Shown here: positions 2,441 to 45,008 of the stretch, one piece after another
Numbering within the stretch: position 1 is the stretch's first letter
Layout of the letters: every line of letters starts with the position of its first letter
Source of the DNA: an uncultured Dokdonia sp.
GTDB lineage: Bacteria; Bacteroidota; Bacteroidia; Flavobacteriales; Flavobacteriaceae
DNA length: 64,000 nt
Direction of reading: 5' to 3'
Assembly: GCF_937910895.1 (NCBI RefSeq)
Contig: NZ_CALEMI010000138.1
Coordinates: 5,280 to 69,279 of the forward strand
Notes under the pieces: model-generated
What the model was told of the DNA's origin: nothing
Databases searched by the model: none
The model's input: only the letters and a program-made list of their open reading frames with translations
Translations under genes and position numbers: made by a program

Positions 2441-4102
2441 TTAGGAAATAGCGATGCCTGTTGGCGTAAAGCCAAACTCTTTTTTAAAGCATTTTGTGAA
2501 ATAGGAAGGGCTAGAAAATCCACATAAAAATGCGATTTCAGCTACTGTATACCTATGATGTGTCAATGCCTCTTTGGCTTTACTCAAACGTGTACACGTA
2601 ATCAGTTGTCCTGGTGATTTGCCTGTTGCTTCTTTTACCTTGCGCTGTAACTGGCGCTCACTCATCCCAAGACTTTTCGTGAGCATTTCTACACCAAAAG
2701 AAGAATTATCAATGTGCTGATGTATAATCGTGATGAGGTCTTCTAAGAACGAATCATATTTAGAAAAACTACTTGAGTGTGCTAACAATGATACATTCTC
2801 AACGCTATCTGTATTACTTACTTGGTAGAGCTTACACAAGGCTCCAAAAGTATAGTGTAATATAGACGTTTCTTCTGTAAAGTGAAATTTTGATCCCGAT
2901 AGCAAGTGCTTAATGGTTTGTGTTATGATGAGGTTATGAGATACAGAATGAGGAAGTATTGTGTTATACATATACACATCCCTCCTATCTATACTGTATC
3001 CATCTGCTAAACAGTCTTCTTTAGCATAGAGTCCTAAATTTAAGTAGTTATTTTCATGTTGAAAACTATCTAGTATATCGAGACCACTCTGTACGGCTTT
3101 TCCCGGAACCTTAAAACCTGCGATAAAACGTTCATCATCTATATCTAATAGGATCCCAGAATGTTTAGCAATACATTGTTTTATAGCTGTAGATTTTGTT
3201 CTTCCCAATGAGGTAGCGATCACTTTACCAAATAGTATCGTGATGAGTCCTTTTTTAGGTGTTGCACTGGGTGTTAGTCCTTTAATAAAATCTTTTAGTT
3301 CATCCAACACTTCTCGTGTATTTCCTGCCCAAAAAAGGTGGTCATTCCCATCAAACTCCACAAATTTTGCCCCTTTAATATGTTTTGCAATAAACCGACC
3401 TTCTTCAATTTTTACATCAATGTCATGGGTGCGTTGCATGAGAAGGGTAGGTACTTTTATATACTCTAAAATATCGATGATATTTACTTGTGTATTCATC
3501 TTGGTAAGCTGCATCGCTGCTTGAGGGCTTGCGCCAGATCTAAAATAACTCGCTAACCAACCCATAAATTGTGGGTCATTGGCTTTAGAAGGTGCTAGCG
3601 TTTCTAGATTCATTTGACCACTCCCCCAACTATTCTCAATCATGTCATATACTTTCTGACGCTCGGCATCTGTGGGTGCCCAAGGGTAGTCTGCAGAATA
3701 GCGTCGCTTCGCAAAAATTCCAAAAGCTGTCAATGCCAAGACCCGATTAGGATAGGTAGCACTAAATAAGGCAGACACACTCCCGCCTTCAGAGTGTCCA
3801 AATAGCACAGCTTTTTCAGATCTTGTAGCATCCATGACTGCCTTGATATCTTCCATGCGTTCTTCTAAGGTAGAGATCTCCACAACACGATCTGAAAGTC
3901 CCGTACCTCGCTTATCAAAAAGGATCACTCTGGCTACCTTCCCTAATTCTTGGAAAAAATTGACTAACTCAGGACACGCCCACATCCAATCAATATTAGA
4001 AACCCATCCTGGGATATACACCAAATCGATAGGTCCTGAACCAAAAACTTGGTAGGCAATATTAATGTTTCCGCTTTTTGTGTATTGTATAGAGGGTTTC
4101 AT
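2441..4102 (-). CDS. alpha/beta hydrolase + degenerate class III cyclase-like domain + AraC HTH
   Basis: GHSEGG nucleophile motif and GNDH His; middle segment resembles a cyclase fold lacking catalytic Asp; C-terminal AEIAFLCGFSSPSYFTKCFKKEFGFTP. Confidence 0.85.
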   Translation of the reverse strand: MKPSIQYTKSGNINIAYQVFGSGPIDLVYIPGWVSNIDWMWACPELVNFFQELGKVARVILFDKRGTGLSDRVVEISTLEERMEDIKAVMDATRSEKAVLFGHSEGGSVSALFSATYPNRVLALTAFGIFAKRRYSADYPWAPTDAERQKVYDMIENSWGSGQMNLETLAPSKANDPQFMGWLASYFRSGASPQAAMQLTKMNTQVNIIDILEYIKVPTLLMQRTHDIDVKIEEGRFIAKHIKGAKFVEFDGNDHLFWAGNTREVLDELKDFIKGLTPSATPKKGLITILFGKVIATSLGRTKSTAIKQCIAKHSGILLDIDDERFIAGFKVPGKAVQSGLDILDSFQHENNYLNLGLYAKEDCLADGYSIDRRDVYMYNTILPHSVSHNLIITQTIKHLLSGSKFHFTEETSILHYTFGALCKLYQVSNTDSVENVSLLAHSSSFSKYDSFLEDLITIIHQHIDNSSFGVEMLTKSLGMSERQLQRKVKEATGKSPGQLITCTRLSKAKEALTHHRYTVAEIAFLCGFSSPSYFTKCFKKEFGFTPTGIAIS

Positions 4103-4350
4103 AAAAGTGCCTTTTGCTCGTTTGTGCCCCTTATTTTATTCTTCTACATCCATTAAAAATAAATGTAAAATATAAGTGTTTCGGACTTTTTTAAGACAAT
4201 AACAAAGTAACTGTAGTTGAGCTTACAAGTCAAACAAACTAGGGTAGCAAAAAGGTAGCAACATCTTTAAATCGCTTATAACCAGCGGTATATAACTATT
4301 CAGTCCAATCGCAATATAAAAACCTTGCTATAGGTATTCAGGTTTGGTGC

Positions 4351-4364
4351 GCTTTCGCGAAAGC
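4351..4364. repeat. GCTTTCGCGAAAGC palindrome copy 1 (intergenic)
   Basis: Perfect 14-mer. Confidence 0.9.
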
Positions 4365-4497
4365 GTATAAAAACACTATTCTCTTAAGATCATTAAGAAG
4401 TAGCGTCTTGATGATCAGAAAATAATCCTCGAGGCAAGTCCATGAGGCATTCAATAGAATATTTTTTTTAGTTTCCGAAGCATGCTTCAAAGTATTA

Positions 4498-4540
4498 GAT
4501 CCCTCTATTTACTGAAACAAGTTCAGTAAATAGAGGGATC
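4498..4540 (-). terminator. 19-bp perfect hairpin, probable terminator
   Basis: GATCCCTCTATTTACTGAA-acaag-TTCAGTAAATAGAGGGATC, downstream of the LuxR-type pseudogene. Confidence 0.55.
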
Positions 4541-4580
4541 AGTTCAACGAGCCATTTTAAATTTGTTGCTTCACAACTTT

Positions 4581-5210
4581 TTAAAACGGCGTCTCACTAA
4601 TAAAAGCAATAATATCTTGCTTAGAATCTAACCCGATTTTTTTACGAATACGATATCTAGAAGACTTTATAGCGGCTATCGTATTATTTTGAAGTTTACT
4701 AATTTCTGTTGTATTCAGTCCCATTTTCATCAAACACAACAATTCTTTTTCATTCGCTTTTAACTGTGGAAAATGCGTATCTAATACTACTTTAAAGTCG
4801 ATACTTATCTCATCGAGATACGCTTGAAGTGTAGAGGATGTTTTTTGAGATACTTTCTCTGAAAGTAGTGAGGCAGACAGGGACCGTAATGTTGCCTGGC
4901 GTTCTTTCTCATTTTCTAACGAGATCACCTGTTTGATCTCATCCAATGTATTTTTTATAATTTCTTCGCGTACAGAATTTTCTACCACCACTTTTTTTAG
5001 CTCACGTTCCCGATTTACTAGGGCAAGATCTGCTTTTAATTTTTCGACTCCTGCCTCTTATGTCTCATTTGCGGCGGGATTCTAATAGAATCTGAACTAG
5101 CTTATTGTACTTGTAACTTAAATGCAATGGCGATACTATCGTTTTCCTGTGTAGATGCAGAAAAAGAAATGATAAAAAATACGATGATTATGATACGCTT
5201 TACTAGCTTT
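4581..5210 (-). pseudogene. internally deleted membrane-anchored LuxR-type (probably TPR-LuxR) regulator
   Basis: C-terminal HTH intact (EKELLCLMKMGLNTTEISKL..IKSSRYRIRKKIGL), frame open only to a stop at 5058-5060 with no ATG. A signal-peptide-like fragment (RIIIIVFFIISFSASTQENDS..VQ*ASSDSIRI) lies upstream in another frame. Confidence 0.65.
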
Positions 5211-6892: not shown

Positions 6893-6960
6893 GATGTATA
6901 GGTATTTATGTTATTTTATTTTTCTTCCCAAAATCGTCTATTGCTATTGGGCTACATTTT

Positions 6961-6988
6961 TAAGACACTAAAAGTAGTATAAGGTCAC
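6961..6988 (-). promoter_or_regulatory. putative ECF-sigma promoter, site 1
   Basis: GTGAC-N17-GTCTTA, about 70 bp before the 6892 start. Confidence 0.7.
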
Positions 6989-6999
6989 ATTTTTTTTTT

Positions 7000-9103: not shown

Positions 9104-9136
9104 TTTCTATAATACTATAAATAGGTTACTGATTGT

Positions 9137-9164
9137 TATGACACATCACTTTTAGAAAAGTCAC
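9137..9164 (-). promoter_or_regulatory. putative ECF-sigma promoter, site 2
   Basis: GTGAC-N17-GTCATA, about 35 bp before the 9103 start. Confidence 0.65.
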
Positions 9165-9229
9165 AATGGGATAGTTTCTATAATTTTAAAATACAATTTA
9201 CTCTTGAAGTAGTGAAAGCTGTGTACGAT

Positions 9230-11349: not shown

Positions 11350-11503
11350 ATTTTAAATTATTTAAACATTAAAAACGCTCTTGGAGATGTATGGTAAAAA
11401 CCACAAAAGACTTCCAAATAAAATCAATCCAGAACTATTAAAGTCGATGAAGTATATTCGATTTTGATAAACCTCTATATAGTAGCGCGTGTTTAGCACT
11501 ATT

Positions 11504-11531
11504 ACAGACACTCAGAAAATAGAAAAGTCAC
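11504..11531 (-). promoter_or_regulatory. putative ECF-sigma promoter, site 3 (rimK operon)
   Basis: GTGAC-N17-GTCTGT facing rimK. Confidence 0.6.
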
Positions 11532-11576
11532 TCATTTTAGATCGTATTACAAAATTACTGCTATTTAAAATAAAAT

Positions 11577-11603
11577 GTGACCTAATCATAATTTAGTGTC
11601 TCA
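11577..11603 (+). promoter_or_regulatory. putative ECF-sigma promoter, site 4
   Basis: GTGAC-N16-GTCTCA, 75 bp before the 11678 start; divergent from site 3. Confidence 0.65.
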
Positions 11604-11677
11604 ACTATTGAATAAAACGATAATACCAAACATATATACTCAAAAAGAGATTTTCTTAAACACCATAGTATAATCCC

Positions 11678-22632: not shown

Positions 22633-22659
22633 AAATTTTAGGATTAAATAGTATCATAT

Positions 22660-22687
22660 TAAGACCCATACAACAGAAATACGTCAC
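22660..22687 (-). promoter_or_regulatory. putative ECF-sigma promoter, site 5
   Basis: GTGAC-N17-GTCTTA, 28 bp before the 22632 start. Confidence 0.7.
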
Positions 22688-22801
22688 TATTATTATATAA
22701 TTATTTTAAAATATTTTATATAATTATGCTTTTGATTATCAGCATTTTAAATTGATTATTTTATAAATCTACACGAGTATGGTTCTTATGTTGCTACATA
22801 C

Positions 22802-27083: not shown

Positions 27084-27119
27084 AGTGGCATATCGAGATT
27101 ATTAATTCTCTCTTAACAT

Positions 27120-27146
27120 TAAGACACATAAAAAAAAATAGGTCAC
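27120..27146 (-). promoter_or_regulatory. putative ECF-sigma promoter, site 6
   Basis: GTGAC-N16-GTCTTA, 37 bp before the 27083 start. Confidence 0.65.
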
Positions 27147-27460
27147 ATTCATTTTTCTATAAACTCTTTCTAAATTCAATAATGATCATCAGCATGTTTT
27201 ATCTATCTTCTGTCTGCCTTGTAAAAGATACAACGAGAACTTATATATTTTGTAAAACAAGGCTTTACTACTAGAATCCTTACTATCTCCTATGCCTCTT
27301 TTAAAAAGTGTAGACATTATATTGTATAACTTTTACGACTGTAAAAATATCTGTTGTGTATACTGAATTTAAATACCTTTGATATGATAAATCTTTATAT
27401 ATTATACAATGTTATACTTTGTGCAAAAAACTAGGGTACTAATTCTCAAAAACGTTACTG

Positions 27461-29811: not shown

Positions 29812-30700
29812 CTACTTTTTATCAACTATTTTTTGATAAGCTTCGACTAGCTTGCTACGAGCTCTTTTCAATCGCATTTTTACAGTATTTTACTAATATT
29901 TGATAATCTTTTTAATTGTCCTTAGAGTAGTATCATCTTGATATTTTAATAGTTAAATAGCTTTTTCTTGAAGTGGTATTATATCTAATACCTTTTTAAG
30001 TAAGTCAATTCAAAGTTCAAAGAGATTTTTATCTGTAACATCTTCTATTCCAGATATACGATACATATGAAAATCTATTAAATAGGTTATTTTAGATTTT
30101 TTTCTTGTGATCTCTATTTAACGTGAGTTCGATATAAGCTTTTCTTCTTTTTCTCCAGTATACGACAGAATGTAAGTTCTGGGCGAGATGAGGCGGGGCA
30201 ATTTCCGTTAAAAAATTTTTGAAGCCTTGGAAACGACAAAGTGTTAGCTTTGGGCGAGGAGAAGCGATGGCAGAAACTTCTTGTGGTTTTTCGCTTCAAG
30301 CGAAAAAATACCTAAGAAATCGAAGATTCATAAGTTCCAAAATTTAAGATAGAAATCACACGCATAAAAAGCGTCTTTTCTTTTGGTTCGGTTTTCTTTG
30401 AACGAGCAAAGAAAATGAAAAAATAACCTGAATTTAAGCTGATTACATTAAATTTTAACGTAATCACTTTAAAAGACTTACTAATTTTTTAAGTCGAACT
30501 CACGTTATTCACATAGTTTACACAAAAGTTATACATAAAACCAAGTAGAAAATTTAGACTCTCCCTGAAAAGTAGATAGCTTAATTATTTTTTTTTAAAC
30601 ATCATGAATAAGGTCTTCTGCTTCTGATTGGTTTTTTGAAAAATAGTAGCATTGATTGTATATTTTTTTTGAATAGCGATCGTAAAGAATAGAAAAAGGA
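29812..30700 (-). pseudogene. ECF sigma factor pseudogene split by a MITE
   Basis: Region 2 remnant LYDRYSKKIYNQCYYFSKNQSEAEDLIHDV*..TFQGESKFSTWF..NFCVNYVN at 30510-30700; region 4 remnant EDVTDKNLFEL*IDLLKK..EKAI*LLKYQDD..VKMRLKRARSKL at 29812-30116. Colinear with the intact sigma at 37513. Confidence 0.9.
30119..30507. mobile_element. 389-bp non-autonomous MITE with 14-bp perfect TIRs
   Basis: TAACGTGAGTTCGA (30119-30132) and TCGAACTCACGTTA (30494-30507), flanked by TT on each side; removing it restores in-frame N-Y-V-N-R-D. Confidence 0.88.
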
Positions 30701-31200
30701 ATCTGTATTATTAGAACCTCTAAGACTAGCGTGAGATATCTTCATTTTTTTACATCAAGTGAGGCTGGGTCCTGTAAGTCAGATAATGTACTATCTGAAT
30801 TCCCTTCTAGAGATAGCTATGTAGAATCGGTGAGTATTACTGTTGTAGAAACCGCTATGACACTCCCTTAAAATCTGATCTACCACTCATAGAAATTACG
30901 GTGTTCTCCGTACGGGCTTTTAGTTTACCCCCTGAATTATCTTGCATAGTCACTGTCATCCTATCTGCTTTGACATCTAACTCAAACATATTAGATTAAT
31001 ATACTTGAATATCCAATTGTTCAGACTCGACGAGACTTTTACCTTCTACACGAGCATCATTATGAAGAGTACTGTACTCAAGATTTATAAAATCAAGAGT
31101 AATCGCTAATTTTCTTTCACTACTTGTAATTTTATAAGAACTATAAATTGTAAGAATGTTTGTTTTTATAACAACCGAATAATCCACAGGTTTTAAAGAA
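30701..31200 (-). pseudogene. GIN-domain (DUF2807) pseudogene
   Basis: RKLAITLDFINLE..NDARVEG..*SNMFELDVK..NSGGKLKAR..DST*LSLEGNSDS, colinear with 36434-37267; two in-frame stops, a frameshift, both ends lost. Confidence 0.88.
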
Positions 31201-32517: not shown

Positions 32518-33233
32518 TAGTTGGTTGTGTTGAGTGTTTTGTTAGAAATAATATTTTTTTCTTCAAGGAAGGCGATGAGATCTTCTGAAGAGGCTCCTTT
32601 TTCTAATGAATACTGAAGCTTGTATACGTGATCTTGACCTGAAGATTTTATCGTAGGAAACTCTTCATTATTTAATATCGGGTTGTCAAATAAAATATCT
32701 AGAATCGTATCTTTAGGTAGCTGTGATTCTATATATAAGGTTTGCCTTAGAAGGCTATTTTCAATTGATTTTACTAAGAATCCTTTTTGCTCAATCTCTG
32801 AATAGTTCATGTAACGTTCACCACTTTCCGTATTCATGACAATACCAAAAGCAAGCATCCGTTTGATTTCTCCTTGAAATGTATTGGACTCTAATACAGC
32901 TCTTTCTTTAATTAAAGGATTGGTTTTTAAAACAATCCCATTTATATAGTTATTAATATGCTTAAAGCCAAAAACTCCGATGACCACCAGAAATATGGTA
33001 TGGTTTAAGGGATTAATAGAGATAAGGTCTAGTAATAATAAGAGTACGGCAAAAGGCTTAAAAAACAAAAGCGCTCTTTTCAATTGATCTGTAATTTTTC
33101 TATTGGTAGCGTTTTTCTTTGTAAAACGCTTCACAGCATACACAAACGCTTTTAGTAACCAATAGCAGAGTATCAGCAAGATAAGTAATGCAAAAAAGCC
33201 CTCCCAGGTATTTATGGTATCCATTGTTTCCAT
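32517..33233 (-). CDS. hypothetical membrane protein, possibly a divergent MscS-like subunit
   Basis: Three N-terminal TM helices followed by a beta-rich region (FQGEIKRMLAFGIVMNT). Confidence 0.7.
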   Translation of the reverse strand: METMDTINTWEGFFALLILLILCYWLLKAFVYAVKRFTKKNATNRKITDQLKRALLFFKPFAVLLLLLDLISINPLNHTIFLVVIGVFGFKHINNYINGIVLKTNPLIKERAVLESNTFQGEIKRMLAFGIVMNTESGERYMNYSEIEQKGFLVKSIENSLLRQTLYIESQLPKDTILDILFDNPILNNEEFPTIKSSGQDHVYKLQYSLEKGASSEDLIAFLEEKNIISNKTLNTTN

Positions 33234-35608
33234 TAGTTTAAGGTTCCTCTATAGATTAAAATATCTTTTACATCATTTATGATGACTGGATTAATATAGA
33301 GTTGTGATCTTTGATTTCTAAGAAGTACTTTGAGATTTGTCAATCGTTTTAAACTTGATTTGTAGTTACTCTCAAAGTGCGTTTCTACATAGGTTTTTAA
33401 CCGTAGTTCGTGCATCTCTTTATGAAGAAATACAAACTTTAAAACAATAACCTCTTCAAGTGTAAAGAAGTCATAAAAAGAGTATCCTTTAGGGTTGTAA
33501 ATAACTTGGTTGTCTTCTATCAGCGTAGTTCCGTAGGTCCATGATTGAAGTACTTCACCTATATTATAGTGACAGTCTCTAGCAAGTTTTAATACCTGCG
33601 ATTCTATTTGTTTTTTTGAAAGTATTTCTTTTTTTTCTGAAACAAGCACTTTATGTGAGGCACCATGTCGTATTAAAAATGCTTTATGAATTTCTTCAAA
33701 AGAAGCTTTTTCTAAGGTAATGTGTGTACTAAAACTATCTGTAAATGATAAACGCTGATCTAATAGTTTTCGCATTTGTCTGGAAATACTAACAATGATC
33801 AGTACCCTATCTGATTCAGATTCTACAAAACGTAATAACGCTCTCATATTTTCGAGCAATGAATGCGTGTCATCTTGCCAAAACTCTAAATCATCAATCA
33901 CTAATAATGGTCGGATACCTGACAGATTTTTTTTGATGTTTCGGAGTGCTTCCCTAATATTTTTTGTGGTCTGTATTTTTCTTCCTTCAAAAGGGATACT
34001 ACTGTCTACCTTTAAGAAAATGGTATGTCTTTTAAAGTGTTTCTGTGAGATATTTTCTAAGAATGTAGACTTCCCACTTAACGGACTTCCTTCTAACAAA
34101 ACCGCTTTATTAAAACCGTTGTCCCAATCTGTTTTAGCTTTCGCGAAAGCGGACTCTTGCGATTCTCTACTAACAATAAATTGGTCTCCTATAAAATTCT
34201 TATTTAAAAATAAGGTGTCATAGTGTGCATTTGCTTCTTTAAACATCCTGTAAGAAACACAACTGATGGATTGATCTATGAGACTCTGATTTGAAAATAA
34301 TGTACCGCTTTCATATTTAGAATTCAGTGCATTTATTCGTTTTGTGATACTATTTTTTACAGCTGTAAAAATAGATCCTTGACTACTTGCAAATTGCGAT
34401 AATGAAGATTGTATAGAAACATCTAAAAAATCTTCATCACTGTATATAAGTGTTGCTTGAAATTGCTCCTCAATCTTACCTGTGATTTCTTCAATAGTTT
34501 TATGTAACTCTTCATCCTGAATAGTAAGCGTTTGATGCACGTTTTTTAATGCTTGTAATTGAGAAGGCATCGCACCAAGTGTATCATGGCCTTTCTCTAC
34601 AAGAAGACTACTTTTAAGATTTAATAAGCTATGATTAAAAAGCGTCTCCATCGTATTTTTTTGTTCCCACAAATCCATAAATAAGGGAATGATCTCAAAA
34701 TCAAACCATTTTTTTACGGCTTTGTTAAAATCAATATGTCTCGTAAGTAACAGACCATTTTCTGTAGCGACGGGTAGCGTTATTGTGGTGAGTACTTTTA
34801 CCTTTTCTTCTAAGTTTTTTGTATACTCGGTTTGTACAAGGTCTTTTGGGTTTTCTATAATGGCATGAGTTATCCAAGTGATCCGTTTAGGAATATCACT
34901 TGTGGTCGTCATATCATTGATAGACCCAATGGTCTCTCCAAGCAATTTAATTACTTTTTTAGACGTATCACTAGTATACAAAGCAGTATCTATAGTATAT
35001 TGCCCAATTTTTTTAAATGAAGTAATCGTCCTCGTCATTGGACCATGACTTTGTATGATTTCTTTAATTTGCTGGGTAGTTTTTATAAACTGTTCGCTGT
35101 AGACAGGCCAAGCATTTTTTTGATGCCTAATGTTATCACGTAATTTTTCATTCGTTTTTTGAGAATCATATATGGCTGCTCGTTCTTCTTTGAGATGTTG
35201 TATTGCATATTGCGTTGCTTCTGTGATGATCTGTACAGAAGCGACTACATGATTGTTTACGCTAACGTTATCTATACCTCCTTCAAGTTCTTTAAGTTCA
35301 GCAATTTCTAACTGAAGCATCACATCTCTATGCAATAAGAATACGTCTTTATATATTTTGGAAAAAGCATAGTGTAGCAAGTACACTTCATTTGTAGGAA
35401 CATCATGAGATGCGTTTATACGATCAAATTCTTGATTTCCTATTGCTAAGTAATCACTAGAAAGTTGTAAAAAATCTTCTTTGATGTACTGTTGTAATGC
35501 TTCGCTGGAACCTATTGTAGATAAGGTGGCTACGTAGTGTTCCATTTTTTTGAGAAACATTTCTGAAGCAACTATATCATCTACTTCTAATGATTGATTT
35601 TCCTGCAT
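33233..35608 (-). CDS. P-loop ATP-binding protein with a long helical N-terminus
   Basis: Walker A GSPLSGKST, Walker B LLVIDDLE. Confidence 0.8.
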   Translation of the reverse strand: MQENQSLEVDDIVASEMFLKKMEHYVATLSTIGSSEALQQYIKEDFLQLSSDYLAIGNQEFDRINASHDVPTNEVYLLHYAFSKIYKDVFLLHRDVMLQLEIAELKELEGGIDNVSVNNHVVASVQIITEATQYAIQHLKEERAAIYDSQKTNEKLRDNIRHQKNAWPVYSEQFIKTTQQIKEIIQSHGPMTRTITSFKKIGQYTIDTALYTSDTSKKVIKLLGETIGSINDMTTTSDIPKRITWITHAIIENPKDLVQTEYTKNLEEKVKVLTTITLPVATENGLLLTRHIDFNKAVKKWFDFEIIPLFMDLWEQKNTMETLFNHSLLNLKSSLLVEKGHDTLGAMPSQLQALKNVHQTLTIQDEELHKTIEEITGKIEEQFQATLIYSDEDFLDVSIQSSLSQFASSQGSIFTAVKNSITKRINALNSKYESGTLFSNQSLIDQSISCVSYRMFKEANAHYDTLFLNKNFIGDQFIVSRESQESAFAKAKTDWDNGFNKAVLLEGSPLSGKSTFLENISQKHFKRHTIFLKVDSSIPFEGRKIQTTKNIREALRNIKKNLSGIRPLLVIDDLEFWQDDTHSLLENMRALLRFVESESDRVLIIVSISRQMRKLLDQRLSFTDSFSTHITLEKASFEEIHKAFLIRHGASHKVLVSEKKEILSKKQIESQVLKLARDCHYNIGEVLQSWTYGTTLIEDNQVIYNPKGYSFYDFFTLEEVIVLKFVFLHKEMHELRLKTYVETHFESNYKSSLKRLTNLKVLLRNQRSQLYINPVIINDVKDILIYRGTLN
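34137..34150. repeat. palindrome copy 6 (in CDS, AFAKA)
   Basis: Perfect 14-mer. Confidence 0.9.
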
Positions 35609-35663
35609 AGTGTGGGTTCCTATTTGTACAACATTTTCTTTAAAGATAAAACCTATATTTGAA

Positions 35664-35691
35664 TGAGACCCTTATTTTTTAAAAAAGTCAC
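35664..35691 (-). promoter_or_regulatory. putative ECF-sigma promoter, site 7
   Basis: GTGAC-N17-GTCTCA, 56 bp before the 35608 start. Confidence 0.7.
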
Positions 35692-35770
35692 TTCTCACTA
35701 AATTTTCAAAGAAAAACGTTTATATTATTGAATTAAGAAATAGCTTTGCATAAAATATGCATCAACTAAA

Positions 35771-36295
35771 ATGAGCCCTTATCAAGAGAAACTACTGTAC
35801 ACCTTTATACTTCTAATTGCAGTACTTGTGGTTATACTTATCACAAAAAAAGCAATTAGTAGGTTTGGTCTTGTTCGATCTATTGAAGTGAACCGAAGAA
35901 AGGTTATTTACTACCTAAGCTACATGATTATTTACCTTATTGCTGGTTCTGCTTTGGCATTTATTTGGGGGTTTGAATTTAGACAAATTGTCATTGCACT
36001 TTCTTCTGTGTTGGCCGTTTTGGGCGTTGGCTTTTTTGCACAATGGTCTATCCTATCTAATTTAACAGCAAGTGTTATTCTCTTTTTCAATCACCCTATT
36101 CGTATTGGAGATAGAATAACAATTATAGATAAGGACTATAACTATACTGGTATTATTATTGACATTACAGGATTTTTCTTATTTATGAGAACAGATACAG
36201 GAAAAAACATCACGATCCCCACTTCTATAGTCATGCAAAAAGGGATTGAGATTTTAGATAAACTGGAAACTGGCGATGAAGAAGATCACGATTAA
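35771..36295 (+). CDS. small MscS-family mechanosensitive channel protein
   Basis: LSNLTASVILFFNHPIRIGDRI..G.IIDITGFF; TAGCTTTG sigma-A-type -7 box at 35741. Confidence 0.88.
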   Translation: MSPYQEKLLYTFILLIAVLVVILITKKAISRFGLVRSIEVNRRKVIYYLSYMIIYLIAGSALAFIWGFEFRQIVIALSSVLAVLGVGFFAQWSILSNLTASVILFFNHPIRIGDRITIIDKDYNYTGIIIDITGFFLFMRTDTGKNITIPTSIVMQKGIEILDKLETGDEEDHD

Positions 36296-36433: not shown

Positions 36434-37267
36434 CTATTTTTTTATGATTTTTGATTTATCTGTTAATCCTTTCACTTCAATTTTAGGATCTCCATACACA
36501 TAAATATTACTTTTCCCCTCTGCAAATAATTCTAGATCCTTTCCTGCATATACATACACATCTGCATTATTTGAAGCATATAAGTTTACAGATGAAACTT
36601 TCATTTTCTTAGCATCAAGTTCTGCTCCATCTTTCAAATTAAAAGCAGCACTGTCTGAATCTCCTTCTAACTTTAACTGTGCTGTATCTGTTAAATTAAC
36701 TGTTGTTTCTTCTCCAACAATCGCCGCCTTAAGATCAGTCCTATCATTCATTGTAATTATTGCATTTGTAGCTCTTGCCTTTAATTTACCACCAGCATTG
36801 CGTTGCATCATAATGATTAATTCTTCTACTTCAATATCTATTTCAAATACACTAGAATCAAAGGCATTAATATATAATACTTCAGATTCAATTCGTCCTT
36901 CCCCTTCAATCTTAGCATCATTTTTTAGGGTAATGTGTTCTATATTCATAAAATCTAAGCTTATTTCAAGTTTCCTACTGCTTGTAATTTCGTTAGATGT
37001 ATAAATTCTTAAAACACTATCTATTACTTTAAACTGAACAATATCTTGAAGATTTTTATCTGTCGTTAATGTATACCCATTTTGCTCACCTTGCACTAAG
37101 GTTACTTCAAGTGCATCATCAATTTCTAAAGAATTAAAACTAGCCATTATGGTGTTTGTCATAGTGACCACATCTTTATCACCTTTTATTTTAGGTTTCT
37201 TTTGTGCGTATATACTTGTTGATATGATAAGAAATACGATAAGTATTATTGATTTTTTCATGTTCAT
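36434..37267 (-). CDS. head GIN-domain (DUF2807) secreted protein
   Basis: Signal peptide; KPKIKGDKDVV, beta-helix-like repeats, GKSNIYVYGDP. Confidence 0.85.
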   Translation of the reverse strand: MNMKKSIILIVFLIISTSIYAQKKPKIKGDKDVVTMTNTIMASFNSLEIDDALEVTLVQGEQNGYTLTTDKNLQDIVQFKVIDSVLRIYTSNEITSSRKLEISLDFMNIEHITLKNDAKIEGEGRIESEVLYINAFDSSVFEIDIEVEELIIMMQRNAGGKLKARATNAIITMNDRTDLKAAIVGEETTVNLTDTAQLKLEGDSDSAAFNLKDGAELDAKKMKVSSVNLYASNNADVYVYAGKDLELFAEGKSNIYVYGDPKIEVKGLTDKSKIIKK

Positions 37268-37305
37268 TTTAATTATTAAAAACCATATTAGGGTCTATAC
37301 ACATC

Positions 37306-37333
37306 TAAGACACCATATATTTTAAAAAGTCAC
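37306..37333 (-). promoter_or_regulatory. putative ECF-sigma promoter, site 8
   Basis: GTGAC-N17-GTCTTA, 39 bp before the 37267 start. Confidence 0.7.
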
Positions 37334-37352
37334 TTTCTAGTTTGGTTTTTTT

Positions 37353-37366
37353 GCTTTCGCGAAAGC
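37353..37366. repeat. palindrome copy 7 (divergent intergenic)
   Basis: Perfect 14-mer, extends to 22 bp. Confidence 0.9.
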
Positions 37367-37512
37367 AAAACCCTTCTCTTTATAAGTAATCGCCTTAAAA
37401 TCGAATAATCAAGTGGTAATACACTATAAAAGAAATGAGGTGTTTTTGTTTGATACGGTCTATTATTTTTTACCTTTAGATCATTAAATAACACGACGCT
37501 CCAACCAATATC

Positions 37513-38136
37513 ATGGGTTTTTTAAACAAAAATTTTCTGGTTCTTTTCAGCACAACCACTAGTGTTTTAAAGAAGTCTAAAGAACTTTCTGATGCCGAGT
37601 TAGTCGCTCAAATTGTCGCTACAAACAACACGTTACTATTTAGTACGCTCTACGATCGCTATAGTAAGAAAGTGTATAATAAATGTTACAGTTTTGCTCG
37701 TAATGAAGACGAAGCAGAAGATTTAACGCAGGATGTTTTTCTAAAATTATTTACAAAGCTGAATACGTTTAAAGGAACTGCAAAATTTTCTACTTGGCTA
37801 TATGCATTTACCTATAATTTTTGTGCTAACTACGTAAATAGAGATAAGGAGCATAAACTGAGTAAGGAATCTGATACGATGGATGACCACGAGTATCACT
37901 TATCTCATATAGAAGACATTCAGGAAGAGGAACTTTTTGATTTAAAAGCATCTAAGCTAGAAAAAGCACTTAATCGTATTGATCCTGAAGACAAAGCGAT
38001 CTTATTACTAAAATATCAGGATGATAGTTCTGTAAAAGAAATTCAAGCAGTATTAAAAATTGGAGAAAGTGCTGTTAAAATGCGTCTTAAAAGAGCACGC
38101 ATACGTGTAGTAGAAGAACATAATAAAATAGAATAA
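37513..38136 (+). CDS. ECF RNA polymerase sigma-70 factor
   Basis: Region 2 AEDLTQDVFLKL..KFSTWLY; region 4 LLLKYQDDSSVKEI..AVKMRLKRAR. Confidence 0.93.
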   Translation: MGFLNKNFLVLFSTTTSVLKKSKELSDAELVAQIVATNNTLLFSTLYDRYSKKVYNKCYSFARNEDEAEDLTQDVFLKLFTKLNTFKGTAKFSTWLYAFTYNFCANYVNRDKEHKLSKESDTMDDHEYHLSHIEDIQEEELFDLKASKLEKALNRIDPEDKAILLLKYQDDSSVKEIQAVLKIGESAVKMRLKRARIRVVEEHNKIE

Positions 38137-38138
38137 AC

Positions 38139-38330
38139 TTGAAAAAAAATCCATTTAAAGAAATAGCTACTCACAAAGAGACACCTCCTGAACTTAAAAA
38201 AAAGGTGCTGGGAGAGATTGCGTCTATAGGTTTGCTAAGTGATATGGTAGATCTTTTTTCAATAAAATTTGCTGCTGTTATCGAAAGTGCCTTAAAACCA
38301 TCAAAAGAAGCTGTTACTAAGAAAAAATAA
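38139..38330 (+). CDS. small protein, KNPFKEI family copy 1
   Basis: 63 aa directly after sigma; paralog of the next gene. Confidence 0.75.
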   Translation: MKKNPFKEIATHKETPPELKKKVLGEIASIGLLSDMVDLFSIKFAAVIESALKPSKEAVTKKK

Positions 38331-38336
38331 ATATAA

Positions 38337-38364
38337 GTGACTTACATTATTTTTCTGTGTCTCA
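38337..38364 (+). promoter_or_regulatory. putative ECF-sigma promoter, site 9
   Basis: GTGAC-N17-GTCTCA, 26 bp before the ATG at 38391. Confidence 0.7.
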
Positions 38365-38390
38365 ATAGATATTCCAAATATCTATGCTGT

Positions 38391-38585
38391 ATGGGAAGAA
38401 AAAATCCTTTTAAAGAAATAGGCTATCCTAAAAAAGAAGTTCCAAAGGAACTCCGTAAGAAAGTCTTGAATGATGTGGCTGCGGTTAAACTGCTTATAGA
38501 TATGAACTCCTTATTTACTGCAAATTATAAAAACACATTCTCTAGTATCTTCTTCACTGAAAAGAGATCTAACCAAACCAATTAA
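38391..38585 (+). CDS. small protein, KNPFKEI family copy 2
   Basis: MGRKNPFKEIGYPKKEVPKELRKKVL aligns to copy 1; start moved from 38337 to 38391. Confidence 0.75.
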   Translation: MGRKNPFKEIGYPKKEVPKELRKKVLNDVAAVKLLIDMNSLFTANYKNTFSSIFFTEKRSNQTN

Positions 38586-38596
38586 AGCATATACTT

Positions 38597-39427
38597 ATGG
38601 ATAGAGTTGCCAAATTCTCAGACCTTACATTTCAATCATTAAAAGCAATGGGAGAAAAGATAGTAACTGCACTGCCTGATATTCTTGGAGCCATCATCAT
38701 CCTTTTTTTAGGATGGCTGATTACTAAATTTATAGTCTATCTGATTAAAAAAGTATTGAAGATTGCACGTGTAGACAAACTCACCCAAAAACTCAATGAC
38801 TTAAAAGTTTTTGGGAATTCAAAAATCAAGTTCAATATTACAAAAATAGTTACCGTCTTTGTAAAATGGATTATGATGTTAGTCTTCCTTATTATTGCTG
38901 CAGATATTATGAATTGGGAGATCGTCTCTTTGGAAATAGGGAATCTTCTTCGATATTTGCCAAGATTATTCAGTGCGATAGCCTTATTTATGGTAGGTAT
39001 CTATATCGCTAAATTTGTCAAGAAAGCCATACAAGGGTTTTATGAAACATTTGATCTAGCAGGATCAAAAATTATAAGCACACTTGTGTTTTATATTATA
39101 GCCATCATCATTACCATTACCTCCTTAAATCAAGCAGGAATTGATACCACTGTGATTACAAATAATGTGACGGTTATTCTAGGTGCTTTTTTACTTGCAA
39201 TAGCTATTGGATTTGGGTTAGGATCCAGAGAGATTATTAGTGACTTGTTACGTACATTTTATACAAGAAAAAATTTCGAAGTTGGTGACGTTATTAAAAT
39301 AGAGAACCTTAAAGGCACTGTCGTTTCTATAGACAATATATGTATGATATTAGCTACAAACACAGGTAATGTAGTGATTCCTATAAGAGATATTGTTGAA
39401 ACCAAAATAGAAATCATAAAAGAGTAA
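38597..39427 (+). CDS. mechanosensitive ion channel family protein with TM-helix repeats
   Basis: LPDILGAIIIL/LPRLFSAIAL repeats, AIGFGLGSREIISD, FEVGDVIKI. Confidence 0.85.
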   Translation: MDRVAKFSDLTFQSLKAMGEKIVTALPDILGAIIILFLGWLITKFIVYLIKKVLKIARVDKLTQKLNDLKVFGNSKIKFNITKIVTVFVKWIMMLVFLIIAADIMNWEIVSLEIGNLLRYLPRLFSAIALFMVGIYIAKFVKKAIQGFYETFDLAGSKIISTLVFYIIAIIITITSLNQAGIDTTVITNNVTVILGAFLLAIAIGFGLGSREIISDLLRTFYTRKNFEVGDVIKIENLKGTVVSIDNICMILATNTGNVVIPIRDIVETKIEIIKE

Positions 39428-39513: not shown

Positions 39514-39942
39514 ATGTCAATTTCAGAATTATACGAATCTGGAGGTCAAAAGAATAATATAGCCCATTTTGCTGCTATTGCAAACGTTGCTATTGTAGAT
39601 GGTGAAGCTAATGAACAAGAAAAAGCATTACTGCTTAAATTTGCGCATAAGTTATCGATCCCTTCAGATACCTTTGATAAAGTAATAAAAAATCCAGGAA
39701 AATATCCTATAAATCCTCCTAGCGTAAAAGAAGAACGCTTAGAATACTTATATGATCTCTTTAAAATGATATTTGTAGATCATAATATTGATGAACACGA
39801 GATGAAGATCATACATAGATATGCTATTGGTTTAGGTTCTTCCTCAGAAGCTGCTGACGAATTAATCAAAAAATCTATTAAGATTTTTAGCGGTAATATT
39901 GATTTTGAAGATTATCAATATTTGATTACTAAGAAAAACTAA
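39514..39942 (+). CDS. TerB-family protein
   Basis: AIVDGEANEQEK and FVDHNIDEHE repeated motif. Confidence 0.8.
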   Translation: MSISELYESGGQKNNIAHFAAIANVAIVDGEANEQEKALLLKFAHKLSIPSDTFDKVIKNPGKYPINPPSVKEERLEYLYDLFKMIFVDHNIDEHEMKIIHRYAIGLGSSSEAADELIKKSIKIFSGNIDFEDYQYLITKKN

Positions 39943-39980
39943 ATATACTACCTCGACATAAGTATCTGGAAGATATACAT

Positions 39981-40020
39981 AGAAAAACCTGATTACATTT
40001 ATGTGTAATCAGGTTTTTCT
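39981..40020. terminator. bidirectional intrinsic terminator
   Basis: AGAAAAACCTGATTACA-tttatg-TGTAATCAGGTTTTTCT between convergent genes. Confidence 0.85.
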
Positions 40021-40079
40021 ATGTATACGATTTATTGGATTGAGAATCTCTTATTCCTTCAGAAATTAAAGTCTCAATA

Positions 40080-44033: not shown

Positions 44034-45008
44034 TTACATATCTAATAGGTAAGCAAATATTAAGGGTGCTACGATAGTAGCATCAGATTCTATAATGAAT
44101 TTTGGTGTATTCATATCCAATTTTCCCCACGTGATTTTTTCATTAGGTACAGCACCACTATAAGACCCATAACTTGTTGTAGAGTCACTTATCTGACAAA
44201 AATAACTCCAGAAAGGGGTATCGGTACGTTCCATATCTTGATATAACATAGGTACTACGCAAATAGGAAAATCACCAGCTATCCCTCCTCCTATTTGAAA
44301 AAAGCCAATTCCATTAGTAGAATTATCTGTATACCAATCTGCCAGGTAAGTCATATATTCTATCCCTGACTTCATGGTACTTGCTTTAAGTTCTCCTTTC
44401 ATCACGTAGCTAGCAAAAATATTACCCATCGTACTATCTTCCCAACCAGGAACAATAATCGGTAGGTTTGCTTTTGCAGCGGCATACATCCAAGAGTCTT
44501 TTATATCTATCTCGTAATGTTTTTCTAATACTCCAGAAAGTAATAGCTTGTACATAAACTCATGAGGGAAATAACGCTCACCAGCAGCTTCAGCATCTTT
44601 CCATATTTTGACAATATGCTCTTGAATCCTTCTAAAGGCCTCTTCTTCAGGAATACAAGTATCTGTCACACGGTTTAAACCACGTTCTAACAAATCCCAT
44701 TCGTCTTGAGGAGTTAAATCGCGATAGTTAGGTACACGCTCATAGTGACTGTGTGCGACAAGATTCATAATATCTTCTTCTAGGTTTGCCCCAGTACAAG
44801 AGATAATATGTACTTTATCTTGACGAATAATTTCTGCAAATATCTTCCCTAACTCTGCTGTACTCATAGCGCCTGCTAGAGATACTAACATTTTAGAACC
44901 TTTTGCGAGTTGATCTTCATATCCTTTGGCAGCATCTACCAGAGAGGCTGCATTAAAATGCAAATAGTATGTAGACAAAAATTGAGAAATAGCTCCTTTA
45001 GTCTTCAT
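44034..45008 (-). CDS. deoxyhypusine synthase-like protein (probable homospermidine synthase)
   Basis: GAMSTAELG, TGANLEED, QIGGG, SGAVPNEKITWGK. Confidence 0.9.
   Translation of the reverse strand: MKTKGAISQFLSTYYLHFNAASLVDAAKGYEDQLAKGSKMLVSLAGAMSTAELGKIFAEIIRQDKVHIISCTGANLEEDIMNLVAHSHYERVPNYRDLTPQDEWDLLERGLNRVTDTCIPEEEAFRRIQEHIVKIWKDAEAAGERYFPHEFMYKLLLSGVLEKHYEIDIKDSWMYAAAKANLPIIVPGWEDSTMGNIFASYVMKGELKASTMKSGIEYMTYLADWYTDNSTNGIGFFQIGGGIAGDFPICVVPMLYQDMERTDTPFWSYFCQISDSTTSYGSYSGAVPNEKITWGKLDMNTPKFIIESDATIVAPLIFAYLLDM
44161..44188 (-). promoter_or_regulatory. possible intragenic ECF-motif site 10
   Basis: GTGAC-N17-GTCTTA inside the DHS-like gene, about 130 bp before the 44031 start; may be a codon coincidence. 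Confidence 0.35.

Follow-up and report, generated by a model that had tools for sequence, protein, structure and literature searches.

The twin small genes that follow the ECF sigma factor gene in the window (the whole stretch of 64,000 nucleotides analysed here) appear on balance to be the duplicated small component of an envelope-stress module of the SigX/CmpX type, and their products most likely bind the sigma factor and hold it inactive, a reading to which we give somewhat better than even weight; it is the sigma binding, the inhibition and the part played by the neighbouring channel that we infer. The module is a variant of the SigX-CfrX-CmpX type, and the twins are less isolated than the original prediction, which put them forward as candidate new anti-sigma or feedback factors, had supposed: the layout of sigma factor, small protein and channel has already been described as ECF102, CfrX is already a candidate anti-sigma, and the gene for an MscS-like channel immediately downstream had been missed. 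The word 'new' stands for the protein family in the slot and for the split regulation of the twins. The novelty is an unrecognised small-protein family in the CfrX slot across a phylum, the conservation of a promoter between phyla and the split twin arrangement. The features concerned are collected in Table 1.

Table 1. Features of the module and related sites in the window (positions are those of the window)
Feature	Position	Strand	Description
ECF sigma, SigX-like	37513-38136	+	207 aa; Pfam Sigma70_r2 and r4_2
Copy 1	38139-38330	+	63 aa; TTG start; divergent paralog
Putative ECF-type promoter before copy 2	38334-38368	+	-35 GTGACTT at 38337-38343; -10 GTCT at 38359-38362
Copy 2	38391-38585	+	64 aa; ATG start; canonical copy, orthologous to the single-copy gene found in other genera
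CmpX-like MscS-family channel	38597-39427	+	276 aa; Pfam PF05552 (two stretches) and PF00924 beta-domain
TerB-like protein	39514-39942	+	142 aa; Pfam TerB
Palindromic hairpin, terminator-like	39978-40023		20-bp stem; sole such site downstream of the sigma gene
Divergent motif site	37302-37336	-	27.8 bits; faces DUF2807 (GIN-domain) gene 36434-37267
Motif sites, minus strand	6957-6991, 9133-9167, 11500-11534, 22656-22690, 27116-27149, 35660-35694, 37302-37336, 44157-44191	-	
Motif sites, plus strand	11574-11607, 38334-38368	+	
Degenerate second DUF2807 and sigma pair	29827-31157	-	sigma pieces interrupted near 30119-30507
791-aa protein	33233-35608	-	weak STAND/AAA NTPase matches; behind motif site 35660-35694
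174-aa mini-protein	35771-36295	+	MscS beta-domain only

The original prediction described two tandem small paralogs, the first of them beginning 2 bp after the sigma stop, and the sequence agrees on both points: the stop codon TAA occupies 38134-38136, a gap of 2 nt separates it from the TTG of copy 1 at 38139, a spacer of 60 nt lies between the copies, and BLASTP aligns their products with 24 of 50 residues identical (48%, E=1e-14). On the strength of this alignment the two genes are judged to be real paralogs. Neither product has a Pfam or NCBIfam match at E up to 1 or carries a Cys or His pair, and no membrane helix or signal peptide is visible on inspection of the sequences. The prediction that no canonical anti-sigma adjoins the sigma gene was likewise borne out, with no ZAS, FecR or RskA domain in any neighbour and no anti-sigma domain in either copy (Pfam and NCBIfam); besides the channel, the neighbours of the module are genes for DUF2807, TerB, RimK-like and CN-hydrolase proteins. 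A listed longer reading frame for copy 2, opening with GTG at 38337, was rejected: with that start the promoter motif would fall within the coding sequence, and the extension has no counterpart in the orthologs.

Word searches with the single sequences recovered only 4 and 1 relatives, and six-frame and profile searches brought out a large family. In six-frame genome searches, in which single sequence and profile agree, 67 of 200 sampled Flavobacteriaceae genera have the small protein, which is also found in several other Bacteroidota families and in another class of the phylum. A profile search of a protein collection returned 186 relatives, all the named ones being 'hypothetical protein', from hosts that include Tenacibaculum, Zhouia, Sinomicrobium, Runella and Empedobacter; an exhaustive profile search returned 418 representative clusters at 50% identity, the best 150 of which span 48-115 aa and include no domain fusions. 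The family is unannotated and has neither a Pfam nor an NCBIfam model. Its signature, KNPFKEI...P.EL.KKVL...LL.DM..LF, opens with N-P-F, usually followed by K, at residues 3-8 (invariant in 123 aligned members), with a near-invariant Pro some 12 residues beyond it, and continues as a hydrophobic stripe (L21, V25, V29, V32, L34, I36, L41 and F42 in copy 2 numbering) that ends in a D-L-F motif; in about half of the members D-L-F is followed by a Pro, a shorter amphipathic segment and a tail of basic residues. AlphaFold2, given the 123 aligned sequences, models copy 2 at a pLDDT of 79, with residues 1-18 extended and a single helix from 19 to 62 (pLDDT above 95 at 21-40), and a search of solved structures found none related to the small protein. 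The best explanation is that the protein is cytoplasmic, an extended N-terminus bearing N-P-F-K followed by a long amphipathic helix, and a lone helix of this kind implies a partner.

The gene neighbourhood is highly conserved. An ECF sigma gene followed by the small gene and then by the gene for an MscS-like channel recurs in 19 of 19 Flavobacteriaceae loci, in 80 of 80 named Flavobacteriaceae loci (Algibacter, Mariniflexile, Winogradskyella and Flavivirga among them) and in nine of ten loci from distant Bacteroidota, the tenth showing the channel in part at its end. In most of the 80 named loci the start of the small gene overlaps the sigma stop, as TAATG or by 8, 11 or 17 nt, an arrangement that is, as sequence signatures go, that of translational coupling; copy 1, 2 nt beyond the stop, is on sequence grounds coupled to the window sigma as well; the gap between the small gene and the channel gene in these loci is usually 7-48 nt. 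Co-occurrence with this ECF clade, a check that the original prediction had proposed, proved close to perfect: in a sample of 200 genera, which is small and contains related genomes that are not independent, the channel is found in 65, every one of which has the small protein adjacent to it, no genus has the channel without the small protein, and 133 lack both. This pattern indicates that sigma factor, small protein and channel come and go together. Sigma factor and small protein have been kept in two genera (G019 and G108) that show no CmpX-like channel, either nearby (loci L211 and L212 respectively) or, at E up to 1e-25, anywhere else in their genomes. A broken module leaves the small protein in the company of the sigma factor, which ties it to the sigma factor first.

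Such an arrangement has a counterpart in Pseudomonas. ECF102 has one studied member, P. aeruginosa SigX, encoded beside cfrX and cmpX (PMC7641640, PMC7826278, PMC8999054, PMC10965496). CfrX (PA1774) is a soluble protein of 84 aa and the putative anti-sigma of ECF102 (PMC7826278, PMC8999054), CmpX (PA1775) is an MscS homolog, and cfrX-cmpX forms a co-transcribed, SigX-dependent unit (PMC7641640); conservation of the channel extends to ECF102 subgroups 1, 2 and 5, and CfrX is named for subgroup 1 only (PMC7826278). In the literature we found neither a demonstration of CfrX as an anti-sigma nor any account of modules of sigma factor, small protein and channel in Flavobacteria. The sigma factor and channel of the window are homologous to SigX and CmpX. 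The former gives the genome's best match to Pseudomonas SigX (31% identity over 183 aa, E=2e-28), and among NCBIfam models SigX PRK09640 fits it best, with a score of 101 bits that falls short of the cut-off (194) and exceeds those of generic ECF models by only about 7 bits; the N-terminal extension of the window sigma, some 22 residues, is common to few genera only. The latter is the sole CmpX match in this genome (27% identity over 201 aa, E=8e-20) and equals CmpX in Pfam architecture and length.

The promoters of the two systems can also be compared. A weight matrix was built from the sigma promoters of 55 orthologs, all from other genera, where GTGACTT-N15-GTCTTAA stands 31-45 nt before the sigma start (usually TTG) in about 55 of 80 orthologs; this is the usual picture of what would be an autoregulated ECF promoter. 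As the original prediction held, copy 2 has a motif promoter of its own, which scores 21.8 bits; the entire 4.8-Mb genome has only 10 sites that exceed 14 bits, this one included, and 8 of them lie on the window's contig; the transcript for copy 2 would be expected to start near 38369-38371. The core pattern TGACTT-N15-18-GTCT occurs at 4 sites in the window against 0.56 expected, and when the spacer is allowed to vary by one base there are ten motif sites. These ten fall within one 40-kb stretch. The regulon that the motif would define seems to be a compact local gene island in this genome. Upstream of the sigma gene itself, the plus strand offers nothing better than -13 bits, with no ECF-type promoter, and no Bacteroidota housekeeping promoter was clearly found there. 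The window and its nearest relative, G187, have in common a block TTTTACCTTTA some 40 nt ahead of the sigma start, which might be a housekeeping-type promoter element and is a weak lead; a perfect 16-nt palindrome, TGCTTTCGCGAAAGCA, at 37352-37367 in the spacer upstream of the sigma gene is absent from G187. Many orthologs (among L051-L130) have a short, conserved hairpin, TAGC-N4-5-GCTA, directly before the sigma start codon (e.g. L092 3405-3424), which may control translation of the sigma factor, whose start is TTG in most loci.

Pseudomonas loci for comparison were fetched from metagenomes with a 60-residue stretch of the OprF porin, matched at 100%, as the query. Locus L132 reads cmaX, cfrX (4077-4331), cmpX (4328-5158, 276 aa), sigX, oprF, with an overlap of 4 nt between cfrX and cmpX. 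Upstream of cfrX, at a fixed distance, 33 of 34 distinct Pseudomonas-type loci carry TGTGACyy-N16-CGTC(T/A), with exactly 18 nt between GTGAC and GTC and the site ending 30-32 nt before the D-P-F codons (among L131-L210; in L132 at about 4028-4056, some 50 nt upstream of cfrX). This placement agrees with the 13-nt cfrX leader cited from transcript-start mapping (PMC7641640), and the motif is probably the proximal SigX promoter, the consensus of which has been called 'not precisely defined' in the literature. GTGAC and GTCT are 17 nt apart in Bacteroidota and 18 nt apart in Pseudomonas, and the elements TGTGACyy and (C/G)GTCT are nearly identical, which is good comparative evidence for placing the window sigma and SigX in one promoter-specificity class. 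A small protein and a channel behind the predicted promoter of their own sigma factor is a feature common to both phyla.

With the sigma factor and channel as best SigX and CmpX matches and a near-equal promoter, the twins occupy the CfrX slot, and the small protein is likely to be the Bacteroidota counterpart of CfrX; in both systems a small soluble protein without a known domain is encoded beside sigma factor and channel. Common descent of the small proteins themselves found no support: sequence-profile and profile-profile comparison, hhalign in relaxed and in global mode and a search of the genome with a CfrX profile all came back without a significant match (hhalign profile-profile probability 0.5%, E=0.12, 9 columns aligned; no match of the CfrX profile to this genome at E up to 10). 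Both proteins begin M-x-[DN]-P-F-[KE] and have D-L-F 37-40 residues later, a resemblance that was noticed post hoc and is suggestive. The systems differ in gene order, cfrX-cmpX-sigX-oprF in Pseudomonas and sigma-small-channel here, and in coupling, the small gene going with the channel in Pseudomonas and with the sigma gene in Bacteroidota. Unlike in Pseudomonas and in ECF102 subgroup 1, no OprF-type porin gene is found among the neighbours of the window sigma, and the small gene of the window lineage exists in two copies under split control.

In the window the module runs from the divergent DUF2807 gene through the sigma gene, copy 1 at its stop and copy 2 to the channel gene. G187 has this layout too, and so have two independent contigs from metagenomes; G019 and G182 are further genera with tandem twins. 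Copy 2 is closer than copy 1 to the single-copy genes of other genera. In a tree whose resolution is weak because it rests on 65 columns only, the four copy 2 sequences (window, G187, G019 and G182) group together (86/82) among single-copy orthologs, and the copy 1 sequences sit on long branches beyond a clade (92/92) to which copy 2 and the majority of single-copy orthologs belong. Tree and similarity together mark copy 2 as the canonical gene and copy 1 as a divergent duplicate. The motif between the twin genes recurs in G187, G019 and L214, and the divergent DUF2807 gene has a motif in G187, L214 and L216 as well as here. As the window has a motif before copy 2 and none before the sigma gene, the latter appears to have lost its ECF-type promoter, and copy 2, the channel gene and the TerB-like gene have one. 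The TerB-like gene, probably the last of the unit, adjoins the module in G187, G019 and G182 too and is absent from the 4-kb flanks of 80 single-copy loci. No terminator-like site was found between copy 1 and copy 2, so that read-through from the sigma gene into copy 2 is also possible.

In the mechanism that we favour, the small protein would sequester the sigma factor, as has been proposed for Pseudomonas CfrX, and the channel would act as the sensing partner, setting the free amount of small protein according to the state of the membrane. Most genera would place sigma factor, small protein and channel together under one sigma-dependent promoter. In the lineage of the window the small gene would have been duplicated and its control split: copy 1 would be made with the sigma factor through translational coupling, from a sigma gene without an ECF-type promoter, and copy 2, the channel and the TerB-like protein would be expressed from a sigma-dependent promoter. 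Since copy 2 lies behind such a promoter, active sigma factor would raise the level of its own presumed inhibitor, a negative feedback without positive autoregulation.

Several other explanations must be weighed against this. Both reading frames are short, copy 1 starts with TTG and no database family covers either, as would be expected of chance open frames in a non-coding spacer; the hundreds of relatives and clusters recovered for the small protein, the invariant N-P-F of its aligned members and a gene position kept across a phylum are not, and conservation on this scale refutes the idea, to which we attach practically no credence. A more substantial case can be made that copy 2 alone is functional and that copy 1 is a redundant duplicate heading for decay. 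Its long branches outside the canonical clade would fit such a fate, and so would the state of two relatives, for copy 1 of G019 has lost its C-terminal half, D-L-F motif included, and in copy 1 of G187 the N-P-F motif has become N-T-F. Against decay, the window, G187 and the two metagenome contigs have all kept an intact frame, the key positions of the family, the TTG start and the place at the sigma stop, and the copy 1 genes of the other three are 61-73% identical to that of the window; we regard decay of copy 1 as rather improbable.

The more serious competitor supposes that the small protein is a subunit or adaptor of the CmpX-like channel, concerned with its gating, assembly or localisation, and that any effect on the sigma factor is indirect or even positive. 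The presence of an adjacent small protein in every channel-bearing genome of the sample speaks for it, as does Pseudomonas, where cfrX overlaps cmpX by 4 nt and is co-transcribed with it, sigX standing separate (PMC7641640). In the window, too, it is the channel that copy 2, the canonical gene, accompanies and not the sigma factor, and the cytoplasmic domain of the channel could offer a docking place for a single long amphipathic helix. Structure prediction gave no confident contact with the sigma factor to set against this: in the orthologous locus L096, where sigma and small gene share one frame and could serve as a single-chain stand-in for complex prediction, AlphaFold2 was run on the natural read-through fusion (TAA as Gly), and the small part, at a pLDDT of 35-62, showed no confident packing on the sigma factor, a result that, from an alignment only 6 sequences deep, is uninformative and does not count as a negative. 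It is the way in which the module falls apart that weighs on the other side, because two genera keep sigma factor and small protein after loss of the channel and none keep the channel without them; moreover, in most Bacteroidota loci it is the sigma stop that the start of the small gene overlaps, a gap usually remaining before the channel gene. A role confined to the channel is accordingly an unlikely alternative, albeit one with a real share of the probability.

Sequestration of the sigma factor and contact with the channel might also be combined. One may speculate that the NPFK proteins and CfrX belong, much diverged, to a single ancient class of minimal anti-sigma adaptors, each a lone helix of about 60 residues, which would physically bridge a SigX-type sigma factor and the cytoplasmic side of a CmpX-type MscS channel, the conformation of the channel, as set by membrane tension or fluidity, directly deciding the release of the sigma factor; copy 1 would then be produced along with the sigma factor as its stoichiometric partner, and copy 2 would be the channel-associated, sigma-induced feedback arm. 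We hold this extended proposal only tentatively and think it doubtful as it stands; were it true, a mechanical-to-transcriptional switch would be common to Bacteroidota and Proteobacteria.

Inhibition of a sigma factor by so small a protein is not without parallel. NepR, a soluble protein of about 60 residues, is the anti-sigma of EcfG (ECF15) in Alphaproteobacteria, and the sigma factor is freed from it by the anti-anti-sigma PhyR. The likeness to the small protein extends to size, solubility, one or two helices with disordered ends and a gene beside the sigma gene (general background and PMC8999054), whereas there is no sequence relation (no Pfam match), a PhyR-like gene is absent here and, unlike that of NepR, the constant partner of the window's small protein is a membrane channel. 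In Acinetobacter baumannii, sigAb-aabA-aabB comprises two small genes after an autoregulated ECF sigma gene, with overlapping frames and anti-sigma activity for both products (PMC12153292). Together with the short anti-sigmas of the CnrY type this system provides a precedent for very short non-canonical anti-sigmas; unlike the twins, AabA is a membrane protein and AabB periplasmic, and the two are not mutual paralogs.

These findings bear on the activation of SigX in Pseudomonas envelope-stress biology, for which CfrX and CmpX are the suspected regulators. The occurrence of the three-part module across Bacteroidota, with a near-equal promoter and a different-looking protein of 60 residues in the CfrX slot, places hundreds of natural variants at the disposal of comparison, in which [DN]-P-F-[KE] and D-L-F are candidate contact points and which include genera without the channel and twin copies with split control. 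A family annotated only as 'hypothetical protein' thereby gains a name and a testable role, and the promoter behind a compact local regulon of this genome has been identified.

A few further observations concern the surroundings of the module. The TerB-like gene accompanies it only in the genera with twin genes (G000, G187, G019 and G182); it is seen also in L211 at 1504-1929 and in L213 at 812-1614, and in G019 it has a motif copy of its own. The window holds a degenerate second pair of DUF2807 and sigma genes, the sigma pieces of which are 45-67% identical to the intact sigma factor; a third small gene after this degenerate copy was ruled out, for the remnant reaches only to about 29827, which leaves no more than some 40 nt to the stop of a convergent gene (29788). 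Finally, one of the minus-strand motif sites stands before the gene for the 791-aa protein with weak STAND/AAA NTPase matches, which is adjoined by that for the mini-protein consisting of an MscS beta-domain only.
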